Of a DNA stretch of 64,000 nucleotides, positions 7,198 to 58,855 are shown piece after piece. Made by a program: the position numbers and the translations under genes. The DNA is from Ostreococcus lucimarinus (Eukaryota). The notes beneath the pieces are model-generated. The model was given only the letters and a program-made list of their open reading frames with translations. It did not search any database and was not told the origin of the DNA. Every line of letters begins with the position of its first letter. Within the stretch, counting starts at the first letter, position 1. The stretch lies in assembly GCA_000092065.1 (NCBI GenBank), contig CP000581.1. One strand, written 5' to 3'.

Positions 7198-8145
7198 TCA
7201 AAGATCCATAATCACGAGGCGACCGAGGGAGTCCTTCGCGAATCCCATGCCCGAGGGCATGAGATGCTTTTTTGTGCCGTCGAGACCGAGAAACGGTTTC
7301 GTCGCCGACGGCGGCAACAGCGCAAAAAACGGCGTCGATTTCAGCTGCTCCTGACGGCGCGCGTGATCGATCTCGAGAGCCTGGCGCTTGTTCGACTTTG
7401 GTCGCTTCTCGAAGATTCGCATCTTTTCGCAGAAGCGCGCAAGAGGGTCGTAACAGTCCATCTGGTCGCCACCGAACTCGCCCCCCTTGGCCAAAAATCG
7501 ATTCACCGGCGCACCCGGCTGAACCCCCGTGGCGCACTCCGCCGCTCTCGCGAGTTCGACGCTTGAGAATTTATACCGTCGATTCAAATCACTGATTTCC
7601 TTTCTAACCTCACCCGGCGTGAGCCAGGTCTCGCCGTCGATCTCCACGTCCGAGACGTCTGGCAGCTTCCCGCGCGAGTTCGCCTTCGCGTTCGCCGCGC
7701 CGCACGAATCTCTCGCCGGAATCACCGCGCTGTTCGGCAGCCCTCCGACGTGTCGATTCATCGTCGACGCCAACGGCGATCGCGCCGAAATCCCACTCGA
7801 GCCCGCGCCCGCGTCTCGCGCCCGCAGCGTCGCCCCGACGCTCTGACTCTTCATCTTCTTCTCGCGCCAGAAAAAGTAATCCGCCGCCGCGTACGTCCCG
7901 TTTTCCATCGCGCGCCACTTATTCTTGTAATGCCCCGCCATAAACTTCCCGAACGAGTTCGAATTCACGCCCAGGAGCGCCTGAAAAGACGTCACCGAGA
8001 CGTCGAATTCCGCCAAAAACTTTCGAATCTTCGTTCGCAGCGTCGTCGGATTCGTCGCTCTCACGCCGCGCGTCTCGTCGTCGTACGCGTCCAAGAGATC
8101 GTCGTACCCCGGCGGGCGCGCGACGGCGTTTCGGTTTCGCGGCAT
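7198..8145 (-). CDS. Hypothetical protein (no recognised domain)
   Basis: Amino-acid composition is non-repetitive and protein-like (YDDLLDAYDDETRGV..., FQALLGVNSNSFGKFMAGHYKNKWRAMENGTYAAADYFFWRE). The ORF 8211 start is TTG; the first ATG is at 8145. Confidence 0.5.
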   Translation of the reverse strand: MPRNRNAVARPPGYDDLLDAYDDETRGVRATNPTTLRTKIRKFLAEFDVSVTSFQALLGVNSNSFGKFMAGHYKNKWRAMENGTYAAADYFFWREKKMKSQSVGATLRARDAGAGSSGISARSPLASTMNRHVGGLPNSAVIPARDSCGAANAKANSRGKLPDVSDVEIDGETWLTPGEVRKEISDLNRRYKFSSVELARAAECATGVQPGAPVNRFLAKGGEFGGDQMDCYDPLARFCEKMRIFEKRPKSNKRQALEIDHARRQEQLKSTPFFALLPPSATKPFLGLDGTKKHLMPSGMGFAKDSLGRLVIMDL

Positions 8146-8361
8146 CGCACGTTCGCGCGAGTCGACGCGGAGTGTCGACGCGGGCGCGCGCCGTCGTCGT
8201 CGCGCGTTCAAATTTTGAAAACGGATTTAGGGTTTATGTCTAGCGCCGTCGGTCGCGCGCGTCGCGGCGCGTTAGGTCTCCCGCGGCGTTGAATGCGTCG
8301 CGACGCGCGCGCGACGCCGCGCATCGCGAGGCGGCGCCGCACACCTCGACGCCGCGCGACG

Positions 8362-55353: not shown

Positions 55354-55597
55354 TGACATGATGACTCAGAAATTCGCTCGCGAGCACAGAGCGCGCGACA
55401 GGTGTCCGTTCGTTGTAGAACACGAGCGTAGAGGGTCGGCGCGGAATGATAGCGTGAATAGCATTCGATAAACATTGAAACAAAGATTGATAATCAAGCA
55501 TCCAGGTCCTCGTAACACGTAAGGTACCACATCGGAGCATCGGATGCAACATGAATGAATGGCGTCTAGTGGAGCGCTCTAATAAAAGAATCTATGA

Positions 55598-56191
55598 TCA
55601 CATCGCCGGAACTTGGAAGTCTGACGCGTTCGGCGGCACGGCGCGACGAGTGACGGTTTGGATAACTTGACGAAGCATTTGGTTCTCTCTTTCCAGAGTC
55701 GTCACGCGGTTTTCCAACTCGTGCAATCGGTTCGCCTTTTGCGCCTCCGTTTGTTCCAAAGACGCGAGATACGCCTTTTTCCGTTCTCGCGCTTGCTGCG
55801 CCGACACGCGGTTTCGCAACAAACGCTTGAGCCGTTTTCTCTCCTTCTCATCCGTGATCGTGTTCAATCGTTCCTCGTCCGCCTTCACGCTCAGCGCCGT
55901 GTTCCCGTGCGGAATGTGCATCGAGTTTCGTCCGACGTACCCCATCCCGAACCCACCCTGATTCGCCGCCGCCCGTCCCCCTCGCGCCGTCGGCTTGCTC
56001 ACCGCCCCGCTCGGCGGCGTCCCGCTCCCTCGCGCCCCCGCCCCCGCGCGCTTCGCCCGTCCGCTCCCGCCGCTCCCCGCCGTCATTCCGGTCGACGTGC
56101 TCGCGCTCGACGTCTGATTCACCGCCTGAAACGTCTGAAACGTCGACGTGAACGCGCTCCGCTCCGTGCTTCGCGCGCCCACCAGTGGCAT
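55598..56191 (-). CDS. HY5: bZIP transcription factor, HY5-like
   Basis: True ATG at 56191. Basic region and leucine zipper [63 protein letters not shown], close to the HY5/HYH basic-region consensus. Confidence 0.7.
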
Positions 56192-56392
56192 TTACGTGCG
56201 CGTCCCGCGCGCGTCGTCGCGTCGTCGTCGCGTCCGCCGTCGCGCGTCCGTCTTTGCGCGCGTCGAGGCGAGCGCGCGTTCGCGTCTTTGCGCGCGTCGA
56301 GGCGCGCGTGCGGGCGCGCGTCGGTCGGCGCCGCGCGTCGTCGTGTGCGCGCGTCGCGCCGAGGGCGTGACGTCATCGCGCGTCGACGTCGC

Positions 56393-56412
56393 GAGATCGA
56401 GATCGAGATCGC
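56393..56412. repeat. (GAGATC)n short tandem repeat upstream of the HY5-like gene
   Basis: gagatcgagatcgagatcgc at 56393-56412. Confidence 0.7.
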
Positions 56413-56594
56413 GACCGGGATGGGAGACGGGACACCTCCGGGGTCCGCGAAACAGTGTTTAGATTACAGGCTATGAAGGACGCGACGCGCGCGAACGAGC
56501 GAGGACGCGCCGGAGACGCGATGGTCGGCGGGTCCTCGCGCGCGCGCGCGCGAGGACGTCGAGGGCGGGAACTAGAGTGGGACGCGCGAGACGC

Positions 56595-57029
56595 CTAGTA
56601 GGCGGCGACGCCGTAGATTGGGCCTCGAATGCGTCGAGCGAGCTGCAAATCCTTGGGCATGATGGTCACGCGCTTGGCGTGAATCGCGCAAAGGTTGCAG
56701 TCCTCGAAAAGATGCACCAAAAAGTCCTCCGTGGCCTCCTGTAACGCTAACAAACTCTCCGCCGTGTAACGCAACGGTTCGGGCGAGAGCTCGTTTGAAA
56801 TCTCTCGAACCTGCGAGTCGAGGGGAAAGCGAGGTTCGTCAGTGTCTGAGAGCGCGTCGGTCGAGCGCGGCGAGACGACGTTCGAATCGTTTACACCGTC
56901 TCGCGCGATGAAACGCACCAATCGCGCGAACGGCATCTTCCGAATCAACAAATCCGTCGTCTTCTGAAACCTCCTAATCTCCTTTAGCGCCAACGTCCCC
57001 GGGCGATAACGCCGCTTCTTCTTGTCTAA
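56595..57029 (-). CDS. CENH3: Centromeric histone H3 variant (CENH3/CENP-A-like), exon 2 (histone fold)
   Basis: [33 protein letters not shown]...[31 protein letters not shown] is an H3 fold, with a roughly 35-aa expanded loop 1 typical of CENH3. Minus-strand ACTGAC at 57073-57068, then gcgcagag acceptor at 57032-57030. The ORF-track MGKDELRF... start is a GTG inside the intron. Confidence 0.7.
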
Positions 57030-57475
57030 CTCTGCGCGCGAGGGAAAACGCGCATCACGCACCGCAGTCAGTCTTACGAACACTTCGCGCGCGCGCGCGC
57101 GCCGTCGGGACGCGCCGCGCGCGGCGACGAGGCGAACGAGCGCCGTCGCGGACCCTTCGGACTCCAACAGCCATTGAAATTTCAAAAATCTCAATTCATC
57201 CTTTCCCACGCGTGCGCCTTCTCAACGCCCCCACGCGCGCGCGCGTCGACCCCGAACGTCACATACCTTGTCGCTCCGCGCCATCCGCGCCCGATAATCG
57301 CCGCTGCGGCGCCTGCGTCGCGCAAAGTCACATAAATCGTCAGCGCGTTTCAAGTTTGAAAATCGCATTCGCCACCGCGCCTCGCCGCGCCCCTCTCCGC
57401 GCGTCCGCGTCGCCGCGCACCGCCGCGGAGGTTTCAAGCGTCACCCGCGCGCCTTCGCTCGCGTCGCTCGCGCAC

Positions 57476-57508
57476 CTTGAACCGTTTCCCGTGGAGTCGT
57501 CGCGCCAT
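57476..57508 (-). CDS. CENH3: CENH3-like histone, exon 1 (MARRLHGKRFK; an upstream ATG at 57619 would extend the tail)
   Basis: ATG at 57508 encodes an H3-like N-terminus (MARRLHGKRFK) ending AAG|GTGCGCGAG (donor at 57475). A phase-0 junction to exon 2 gives ...[16 protein letters not shown]. The implied intron, 57030-57475 (446 bp), is the longest in the window. Confidence 0.45.
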
Positions 57509-57627
57509 ATCGGCGCGAGTCGTCGAGTGCGGCGCCGCAGACGCGCGCGCGCGACGCCTCGATCGCGCCGCACGCCCCGCACGCGCGCGAGAATCGGTGA
57601 ACGGGACGAAGGAAGACATCGCGCGCC

Positions 57628-57681
57628 ATGGCGAACGCCACGGATCCGCTGGCGAAGACCGTGCGCGGGATGGACCCGCAG
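57628..57681 (+). CDS. PRP38: PRP38 pre-mRNA splicing factor, exon 1
   Basis: MANATDPLAKTVRGMDPQ matches the PRP38 N-terminus as recalled from memory (MANRTDPLAKNIHGTNPQ). Ends CAG|GTGCGT. Confidence 0.8.
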
Positions 57682-57808
57682 GTGCGTCGCGCGCGGCGGC
57701 GCGGATTCGCTCGAAACGACGCGCGAAACGCGCGAAACGCGCGTTCGCGAGGCGACCAGAGACGCGAGACTGACGATGCGATTCGCGCGCTCGTTTTCGT
57801 CGACGCAG

Positions 57809-58855
57809 AATATCATGGAGCGCATCACGCGCGATAAGGTGTACGCGATGACGTACTGGAAGGAGAAGTGTTTCGCGGTGAGCGCCGAGGCGCTCGTGGA
57901 CTTGGCGGTGGATTTACGCGCGGTGGGGGGAATATACGGCGGGAACAATCGAGCGACGGAGTTTCTGTGTCTCACGCTGAAGCTGTTGCAGATTCAGCCC
58001 GAAAAAGAGATCATATTGGAGTTCATAAAGAACGAAGACCACAAGTACGTGCGGTTGCTCGGGGCGTTTTATCTGCGCTTGGTCGGAAAGCCGACGGATG
58101 TATACCAGTATCTCGAGCCTTTATTGAACGATTACAGGAAGGTTCGGTATCGCAGCCGAGATGGCAAGTACGTGCTGACGCACGTGGACGAGTTTGTGAA
58201 CAACTTGTTGACGAAAGATATGTTTTGCGACGTCGCGTTGCCGCGGGTGCCGCATCGACAGGCGCTCGAAGCCGCGGGATCGCTCGAACCGCGCGTGAGC
58301 GCGTTAGAAACCGACGTGAAAGATTTAGAAGAGCAGTTGGAGAATGCGGTGGAGGAGGCGATCGGGCGCGAGATGCGGATGGACGTCGACGGGGACGACG
58401 ACGAGTTGGACACGACGGCGACACGAGACGCCGCCGGTAAGCGCCCACGTGAGGAGGATGAAGAGGGCGAGCTAGCGAACGCCTCCACGCCAGCGGCCAA
58501 AGTGAACCGGCGGCAACCAGTCGATCTTCACGATGAAGGAAACGCGCGCCATCGTTCGAGGTCGCCGCAGCGTCGCGGCGGCGGTGGCGACTACGGCGAG
58601 CGTCGCGGCGGCGGCGTGAGAGGGTTGTCGCGAGATCGCGGCGGAAATCGCGGTGATCGCGGCGAACATGCGCGCCCAGGCGATCATCGCGCTGATTACT
58701 TTCGCGAGTCTGAAAAAAAGGAAAAGAAAGAGAAGAAAGAGAAGAAGGAAAAGAAGGAAAAGAAGGAAAAGAAACCCGCCGCCGAGGTCGACCCAGAAAT
58801 CGCGGAGGCGAACGCCATTCGCGCCAAGCTCGGGTTAAAGCCCGTGCGAGGTTGA
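57809..58855 (+). CDS. PRP38: PRP38 pre-mRNA splicing factor, exon 2 (PRP38 domain and charged K/E/R-rich tail)
   Basis: Acceptor acgcag at 57806-57808, then NIMERITRDKVYAMTYWKEKCFAVSAEALVDLAVDLRAVGGIYGGNNRATEFLCLTLKLLQIQPEKEI..., the PRP38 domain. The 127-bp intron has ACTGAC 34 nt before the acceptor. The C-terminus has (EKK)n. Confidence 0.8.
   Translation, partial: NIMERITRDKVYAMTYWKEKCFAVSAEALVDLAVDLRAVGGIYGGNNRATEFLCLTLKLLQIQPEKEIILEFIKNEDHKYVRLLGAFYLRLVGKPTDVYQYLEPLLNDYRKVRYRSRDGKYVLTHVDEFVNNLLTKDMFCDVALPRVPHRQALEAAGSLEPRVSALETDVKDLEEQLENAVEEAIGREMRMDVDGDDDELDTTATRDAAGKRPREEDEEGELANASTPAAKVNRRQPVDLHDEGNARHRSRSPQRRGGGGDYGERRGGGVRGLSRDRGGNRGDRGEHARPGDHRADYFRESEKKEKKEKKEKKEKKEKKEKKPAAEVDPEIAEANAIRAKLGLKPVRG
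58718..58772. repeat. In-frame (GAAAAG/AAGGAA)n repeat encoding the (KEKKEK)n tail of PRP38
   Basis: gaaaaaaaggaaaagaaagagaagaaagagaagaaggaaaagaaggaaaagaaggaaaagaaa. Confidence 0.8.

Follow-up and report, generated by a model that had tools for sequence, protein, structure and literature searches.

A four-exon structure for the probable CenH3 gene of Ostreococcus lucimarinus

Does Ostreococcus lucimarinus encode a centromeric histone H3 (CenH3) of unusual architecture, or an ordinary one whose introns have been read as protein? The question arises on the minus strand of a 64,000-nucleotide (nt) stretch of the CCE9901 strain (contig CP000581.1; the whole stretch is hereafter the window), where a GTG-initiated open reading frame (ORF) of 204 amino acids (aa) at 56595–57209 (-) contains an H3 fold. 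An earlier note, made from the sequence alone, had described this ORF as a CenH3 with a loop-1 insertion of roughly 35 residues, a divergent αN helix, a tail of only about 21 residues and the longest intron in the window, at 446 base pairs (bp). We find that 56595–57508 (-) is, with a probability of roughly 0.92, the single-copy CenH3 gene of O. lucimarinus CCE9901 chromosome 1, comprising four exons and encoding a 135-residue product. The basis for this assignment lies in the predicted exon–intron structure, the match to an annotated protein, the sequence hallmarks of CenH3 and the orthology to Chlamydomonas CENH3.1. Both the H3 fold and the CenH3 label stand. In favour of the label are the sequence criteria set out in the literature, the orthology to CENH3s of green algae that have been studied experimentally, and previous publications on the gene itself; the apparent oddities result from reading through the third intron and skipping the second exon.

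The minus strand of positions 56300–58100 was read, its ORFs were listed, and candidate splice joins were translated. Joining 57508–57476, 57312–57267, 57031–56919 and 56810–56595 produces an open frame of 408 nt (135 codons plus stop), interrupted by three introns which all conform to the pattern GT...CTGAC...CAG (Table 1). Exon 1 is as previously described, with its ATG at 57508, the peptide MARRLHGKRFK and the donor AAG/GTGCGCGAG, from which an intron runs from 57475. The intron end that had been proposed near 57030 was correct with regard to its signals (ACTGAC, and CGCGCAG upstream of 57031), although not to the base: the intervening 46-nt exon moves the phase by one, so that the canonical CAG acceptor is used and exon 3 starts at 57031, rather than at 57029 via the AG two bases further on. 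The supposed 446-bp intron consists of intron 1, this short exon, and intron 2; the suggestion, offered as an alternative at the time, that a further exon exists was therefore right. The loop-1 insertion is the third intron, for which GTGCGT lies directly after the PFARL codons and TCGCAG directly before the VREISNEL codons. As this intron is 108 nt long, its excision leaves the frame intact, and the open frame across it is unremarkable, with 39% of shuffles of its own sequence likewise being free of stops.

Table 1. Coordinates, in the window, of the CenH3 gene, its intronic islands and the adjoining PRP38 start
Feature	Coordinates	Strand	Description
PRP38 exon 1	57628..57681	+	MANATDPLAKTVRGMDPQ; donor CAG/GTGCGT
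Divergent intergenic/promoter region	57509..57627	.	119 bp, shared with PRP38
CenH3 exon 1	57476..57508	-	33 nt; ATG 57508; MARRLHGKRFK; phase-0 donor AAG/GTGCGC
Intron 1	57313..57475	-	163 nt; GTGCGC...CGCTGAC...ACGCAG
A/T-rich dyad island, intron 1	57347..57364	-	GATTTTCAAACTTGAAAC; ~45 nt upstream of acceptor
CenH3 exon 2	57267..57312	-	46 nt; APQRRLSGADGAERQ plus first base of Glu27; ends AAG/GTATGT
Intron 2	57032..57266	-	235 nt; GTATGT...ACTGAC...GCGCAG
A/T-rich palindromic island, intron 2	57173..57190	-	GATTTTTGAAATTTCAAT; perfect palindrome GAAATTTC; ~75 nt downstream of donor
CenH3 exon 3	56919..57031	-	113 nt; encodes αN, α1
Intron 3	56811..56918	-	108 nt, phase 0, in frame, stop-free; GTGCGT...ACTGAC...TCGCAG
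CenH3 exon 4	56595..56810	-	216 nt including stop TAG 56595–56597; loop 1, α2, α3, C-terminal extension

Spliced from four exons, the product matches XP_001415904.1 (P0001) with 100% identity along its entire length; this protein is also recorded as ABO94196.1, UniProt A4RRH7 and JGI 29021, under the title 'predicted protein [Ostreococcus lucimarinus CCE9901]'; identity with the public record was established at the protein level, and exon 2 is required to reproduce the record exactly. In a 2015 survey (PMC4357034), JGI 29021 appears as the CenH3 of O. lucimarinus, with 135 aa, a coding sequence (CDS) of 408 nt, and introns within the CDS; its table gives L, - and - for this protein at positions 4, 9 and 27. 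CenH3 from two Ostreococcus species has, in addition, been analysed previously with respect to purifying selection (Zedek & Bures). The gene, its 135-residue product and the CenH3 assignment are thus already known from public databases and at least two papers, and the locus is a correctly annotated CenH3 gene of ordinary structure. Since the exact match is to a computational annotation, independent evidence for the structure was sought.

Comparison with related algae provides such evidence. In O. tauri (L001), exons homologous to all four, with lengths of 33, 46, 113 and 216 nt, are delimited by the same signals, and their spliced product is identical to the window protein at 131 of 135 positions and equals the curated XP_022838268.1 (P0178), which is presumably ostta01g03890, given the single CenH3 on chromosome 1 of that species. 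The codons of the two species differ by 50 synonymous and four non-synonymous changes. Identity is 83–88% in the exons and 70%, 56% and 50% in introns 1, 2 and 3, respectively; with shuffled sequence at approximately 50%, introns 2 and 3 are at the background level. Intron lengths in O. tauri are 172, 224 and 84 nt, compared with 163, 235 and 108 nt in O. lucimarinus, and the 84-nt intron 3, located at the same site, carries in-frame stops.

The two short exons at the 5′ end are similarly well preserved. The exon 1 peptide is unchanged in O. tauri despite four nucleotide changes, and is identical both in O. mediterraneus and in a third Ostreococcus lineage represented by a genomic contig (L002; Logan SRR31805816), with only synonymous change between species. 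Exon 2 has counterparts of equal length and position in O. tauri (APNRRLSGADGAERQ) and in L002 (APQRRLSGADGVERR), and it is matched by the O. mediterraneus tail ASNPKRRLSGAD; the protein tail of the latter species, MARRLHGKRFKASNPKRRLSGAD..., spans exons 1 and 2. The 46-nt exon is kept in three Ostreococcus lineages and is under purifying selection. The third lineage also retains introns 1 (192 nt) and 2, whilst at the position of intron 3 it runs from ...TTCGCGCGATTG straight into GTGCGAGAGATC... (L002 ~1845–1850), i.e. the intron is precisely absent; the same is true of a Micromonas-like locus (L003, ~2735–2745). Micromonas genomic loci and MMETSP transcript ORFs yield orthologues of 135–139 aa without the insertion, and no orthologue has any residue between PF(A/C)RL and VREISNE. 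Mamiellophyceae orthologues begin MAR or MSR, followed by (R/K)L(H/Q)G, and other chlorophyte orthologues begin MAR.

The spliced product contains a histone fold (Pfam PF00125, E=2.5e-40, residues 12–126) and matches H3 chains in the PDB at E ~1e-40. The sequence criteria for a CenH3, as set out in a passage of Drinnenberg et al. (2014) citing Malik & Henikoff (2003), comprise an extended loop 1 and the loss, at defined positions, of three residues of H3, namely Gln, Phe and Thr (the Thr107/108 criterion is printed as 118 in that passage); the same passage adds a divergent N-terminal tail and phylogenetic grouping. Loop 1 of the window protein is one residue longer than that of H3 (AQDFKT-DLRF), as it is in nearly all chlorophyte orthologues. 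Gln68 (69 counting Met) of α1 is replaced by Ala in Ostreococcus, Cys in Micromonas and Ser in CENP-A. Phe84/85 is Tyr in Mamiellophyceae and Trp in most other chlorophytes, CENP-A and HTR12; the change from Phe to Tyr is conservative, making this the weakest of the three residue tests. Thr107 is Cys in the window protein, Ala in CENP-A and Ser in HTR12. The tail, MARRLHGKRFKAPQRRLSGADGAERQELDKKKR, is not alignable to H3 beyond MAR, has no ARTKQTARKS or ARKS motif, and is without the H3 K4, K9 and K27 modification sites; it is not, as had been thought, very short, with 33 residues preceding RYRPGT compared with 40 in H3 (Met counted). With the published tree included, the predicted protein displays all of the published sequence criteria for CenH3.

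The αN helix, which had been described as divergent, is 80% identical to that of H3 (20 of 25 residues), with all five differing positions being positives in BLASTP. The most divergent part of the fold is instead the end of α1, loop 1 and α2, the remainder being nearly identical to H3. Identity to H3 is 70% over the whole fold and 49% in loop 1 plus α2; the differences thus cluster in the region that corresponds to the targeting domain of CENP-A. At the C-terminus, where H3 has ERA, the protein ends in the hydrophobic sequence GPIYGVAAY, which is five residues longer. A BLASTP alignment to H3 gives 69% identity with one gap and ends at RIRG, whereas that to Chlamydomonas CENH3.1 (CrCENH3.1) gives 78% identity over 105 ungapped residues and reaches into a shared RGPIYG extension; the window protein is accordingly closer to CrCENH3.1, with which it shares both the indel and the extension, than to H3. 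Grouping with CenH3s was judged from such pairwise alignments and from a published tree, in which JGI 29021 falls in a clade with AT1G01370 with 'good' support. Fold identity to family members from Micromonas, Dunaliella and Picochlorum is 82–90%, and the family is conserved across Chlorophyta; many of its members are named merely 'histone H3' or 'H3 variant' in public databases. One of them, Picochlorum P0090, appears to be the protein that was proposed as a putative CenH3 in PMC11092101.

A canonical H3.1 or H3.3 has the ARTKQTARKS...K27/K36 tail, Gln68, Phe84 and Thr107, and 135 residues ending in RGERA; the present protein differs in tail, loop-1 length, all three diagnostic residues and C-terminus. 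Similarly, replication-dependent histone genes have a 3′ stem-loop and no introns; the present gene has three introns, the histone 3′ stem-loop (RF00032) gave no match at E<=1 within 55500–58000, and the gene is located outside histone clusters, flanked by PRP38 and a bZIP gene. The earlier note had allowed for this being the only H3 in the genome, a situation which does not apply: three further O. lucimarinus H3 genes, two of them H3.1A genes without introns and the third H3.3-like, are listed in a supplementary table of PMC4357034, and O. tauri has four H3 genes, of which ostta01g03890 on chromosome 1 is its single CenH3 (2026 preprint). Information on these other H3 genes was taken from the literature.

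The connection to functionally studied proteins runs principally through Chlamydomonas. The 90% cluster of P0139 contains P0179 (CHLRE_16g661450; Cre16.g661450), which is CrCENH3.1 and carries both of the published CrCENH3.1 antibody peptides, PARPGRKA and KAQAEAATPTKSKRPSGAAATPTRG. For CrCENH3.1 and CrCENH3.2, a preprint describes punctate nuclear staining, enrichment at the ZeppL centromeres by cleavage under targets and tagmentation (CUT&Tag), and a double mutant that could not be recovered. For Chlorella sorokiniana, sequencing after chromatin immunoprecipitation (ChIP) of CENH3 supported predicted centromeres; the protein is tied to the family solely because the antigen peptide resembles the N-terminal sequence of P0116 from C. 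vulgaris.

The closest comparators share some features with the window protein and differ in others. The two Chlamydomonas proteins have the same one-residue extension of loop 1, the same REISN...EP(F/L)R(W/Y)TAE segment, Cys at 107 and an RGPIYG(I/V) extension, and their genes also contain introns and lie outside histone clusters; however, Chlamydomonas has two paralogues with a tail of about 55 residues of the MARTKQ type and Trp84, whereas Ostreococcus has one gene with a 33-residue MARRLHGKRFK tail and Tyr84, and centromere localisation has been shown for Chlamydomonas only. The O. tauri CenH3 is identical from KKRRYRPGT to the C-terminus, its four substitutions all being in the tail. Arabidopsis HTR12 (AT1G01370), used as a secondary comparator, has likewise lost Gln68, Phe84 and Thr107; its loop 1 is also lengthened, and its α2 opens with a sequence of the R(W/Y)TAEAL type, but it is 178 aa long with a tail of about 80 residues, a loop 1 longer by two residues and 63% fold identity. 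Human CENP-A, for which the comparator sequence was verified exactly, is a centromere-marking variant of the H3 fold which has also replaced Gln68, Phe84 and Thr107 and diverges in loop 1 and α2, the CENP-A targeting domain (CATD). It differs in its lower fold identity (60%), in a loop 1 longer by two residues, in a shortened αN, a divergent α3 and a LEEGLG C-terminus; the alga, unlike CENP-A, keeps nearly H3-like αN and α3 helices. With canonical H3.1/H3.3 the protein shares the fold, 69–70% identity, nearly identical αN and α3 helices and RIRG, although its gene has three CDS introns whilst the H3.1A genes of the same genome are listed as intronless (PMC4357034).

Several points weigh against the assignment. 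No localisation or ChIP data for an Ostreococcus CenH3 were found in the searchable literature, and a centromeric function is transferred from the Chlamydomonas and Chlorella orthologues, the Chlamydomonas source being a preprint. The splice junctions are predicted from comparisons between species and from public annotations that are themselves computational. The loop-1 extension amounts to just one residue and position 84 is Tyr rather than the typical Trp. Finally, with 70% fold identity to H3 and 82–90% across chlorophytes, the protein appears unusually conserved for a CenH3.

The best-surviving alternative is that the four-exon gene encodes a non-centromeric replacement H3 variant, H3.3-like or lineage-specific, with the centromeres being marked in some other way. 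The almost unchanged αN and α3 helices within a fold 70% identical to H3, a slow evolution unlike that of most CenH3s, the naming of many relatives simply as H3 or H3 variants, and PDB sequence searches that rank H3 above CENP-A could all be taken in its favour. We nonetheless consider it improbable, since the published CenH3 sequence criteria all apply to the protein, a separate H3.3-type gene is present in both Ostreococcus genomes, and no other CenH3 candidate has been reported in these small genomes. Moreover, immunofluorescence as well as CUT&Tag reportedly places the Chlamydomonas orthologue at centromeres, and the two paralogues of that species are jointly essential. The slow evolution, too, matches the literature: slow CenH3 evolution is reported for lineages with symmetric meiosis, the two Ostreococcus species included, and the 50:4 ratio of synonymous to non-synonymous differences, together with the fully identical fold, fits the purifying selection analysed earlier for Ostreococcus CenH3.

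A second alternative, which we regard as very unlikely, places the start of translation at an internal ATG in exon 2 (57284; MARSDK), joined via the AG at 57030–57031 to give a protein of 114 aa with a very short tail, exon 1 then being 5′ untranslated region or an alternative first exon. It would have an H3-like 'MAR' start, a strong donor (AAG/GTATGT) and an in-frame join to 57029, and O. tauri has an ATG at the equivalent position. That ATG, however, arises from conserved Asp-Gly codons of the main frame, and O. mediterraneus, which has Asp-Gln there, has no ATG; the in-frame, weaker acceptor which it requires differs between O. lucimarinus and O. tauri. The purely synonymous change in exon 1, and the start of Mamiellophyceae orthologues, including complete MMETSP ORFs, with the exon 1 motif, also argue against it. 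The two-exon structure of the earlier note (57508–57476 joined to 57029–56595), under which a CenH3 of 155 aa would have 36 residues inserted in loop 1, about 21 residues in its tail and a single intron of 446 nt in its gene, is effectively refuted: its join is in frame, the 204-aa ORF is uninterrupted and gene callers of the prokaryotic style return the same read-through artefact from metagenome catalogues (P0017 and P0012, of 204 and 167 aa, respectively), but the insertion occurs in no orthologue, the 108 nt bear a full set of GTGCGT/ACTGAC/CAG signals, are only 50% identical to a stop-containing 84-nt counterpart in O. tauri and are absent in L002, the join needs the weaker AG at 57030–57031 and skips a conserved exon, and the public protein models of both species are the four-exon product.

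Further candidates were rejected. Variants B and D, considered alongside the two-exon structure, are in frame, but are contradicted by the orthologues and by the conservation of exons and introns. An upstream in-frame ATG at 57619 (ORF 57434–57619; MSSFVPF...) is just 9 nt away from the start codon of PRP38, and orthologues all start at MAR or MSR.

Taking the four-exon gene to encode a CenH3, its likely mode of action can be outlined by analogy with CenH3/CENP-A biology. Transcription would begin in the 119-bp region shared head-to-head with PRP38, and the protein would take the place of H3 in nucleosomes marking each centromere. The divergent end of α1, loop 1 and α2 may be the equivalent of the CATD, by which a dedicated deposition pathway presumably tells CenH3 from H3, whilst the hydrophobic C-terminus, GPIYGVAAY, is a likely docking site for kinetochore proteins of the CENP-C type.

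Introns 1 and 2 each contain an A/T-rich island. Across the three Ostreococcus loci these read TTTCAAACTTGAAA in intron 1 and TTGAAATTTCAA in intron 2, at matching positions (L001 ~2705–2735 and 2880–2900; L002 ~1375–1395 and 1560–1580), and they take the forms TTTCAA-AC-TTGAAA and GAAATTTC. Splice signals aside, the islands are the only conserved blocks inside introns 1 and 2 in a three-lineage intron alignment. Shuffling gives p values for the intron 1 island of 0.016 in O. lucimarinus, 0.06 in O. tauri and 0.0015 in L002, and for the intron 2 island of 0.006 in O. lucimarinus and 0.005 in L002. Neither intron 3 nor the introns of the Micromonas-like locus contain such islands; at the latter locus, an E2F-type TTTGGCGC is found in intron 2 instead. 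The intron 2 island forms only a small local hairpin, with a fold z-score that is not significant. An Rfam search gave no match bar a chance microRNA match far below threshold, and the folds of the introns were no better than those of shuffles; an intronic small nucleolar RNA, another structured RNA and a histone stem-loop were rejected on these grounds.

A regulatory role for the islands is plausible. The more specific proposal, that a dimeric transcription factor acts in cis through islands of the TTTCAA-NN-TTGAAA/GAAATTTC type within the gene, for instance to time CenH3 expression in the cell cycle, with the E2F-type site serving instead in Micromonas, is tentative, and we consider it rather unlikely to hold as a whole. 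Intron 1 (57313–57475, compared with L001 2593–2764) is clearly better conserved than introns 2 and 3, which fits with regulatory sequence near the shared PRP38/CenH3 promoter. TTTCAAA was also considered as a general intron or promoter motif and rejected; it occurs 17 times in the window compared with 6.3 expected, but most copies are inside ORFs and no general rule emerges. The only promoter copy is near 8214. The bidirectional promoter at 8205–8235, located between a minus-strand gene (ORF 7198–8211) and a CTP-synthase-like gene (ATG 8363), carries TTCAAATTTTGAAAACGG, which resembles the CenH3 islands and adjoins a telobox-like TTTAGGGTTT.

Intron 3 differs among close relatives, being 108 nt long in O. 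lucimarinus and 84 nt in O. tauri, with none in the SRR31805816 Ostreococcus lineage or in Micromonas. The pattern may document that an intron within the histone fold was recently lost or gained; this is a separate proposal from that on the islands and is put forward equally tentatively. Pairwise, the three Ostreococcus CDSs differ at 41, 43 and 52 of 318 nt, distances too similar to favour either loss or gain. The possibility that intron 3 is a repeated 'introner-like' element was discarded, as a blastn comparison of all three introns with the window yielded nothing beyond short low-complexity matches rich in GC; no other copies of intron 3 were found in the window by this search.

The neighbourhood of the gene is conserved. 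The proximity of exon 1 to a divergent PRP38 gene, remarked on previously, is confirmed, with 119 bp separating the start codons (ATG 57508 and ATG 57628). The PRP38 domain (PF03371, E=2.4e-61) lies downstream, and the annotated O. tauri PRP38 begins at the homologous ATG; the head-to-head arrangement is the same in O. tauri, with about 125 bp between the starts. On the 3′ side of CenH3 is a bZIP gene (55598–56191, -), a single uninterrupted ORF of 197 aa (PF00170, E=1e-9), and the order PRP38–CenH3–bZIP is kept in O. tauri and in L002. Just past the CenH3 stop, at 56480–56594 (-), there is a GC-rich inverted repeat, GTCCTCGCGCGCGCGCGCGCGAGGAC, with its flanks. This region folds better than shuffles (z=-2.3, with one of 200 shuffles as good) and is largely low-complexity (GC)n; it may be a 3′-end or terminator-like feature, or may be meaningless.

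The same type of error as that corrected here can be seen in a database model. In O. tauri RCC1115 (GCA_002158475.1), the NCBI model P0031 (L001 3001–3447) looks mis-annotated, having 130 aa compared with the 135 of the four-exon product; its start codon is an ATG that belongs to intron 2, and some 30 nt of intron 3 are translated in it as VRIIVLACAR. Short introns in the GC-rich genomes of Mamiellophyceae are often in frame and free of stops, such that a reading at the level of ORFs yields false 'insertions', and short exons such as the 46-nt exon 2 are easily missed.

The main use of the present analysis is therefore as a correction, and it carries little weight as a discovery. No report of mapped Ostreococcus centromeres was found in the searchable literature, and a paper on KNL2 contained nothing usable on chlorophytes. 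For mapping the centromeres of Ostreococcus, the gene described here is an obvious handle, by tagging of its product followed by ChIP or CUT&Tag.

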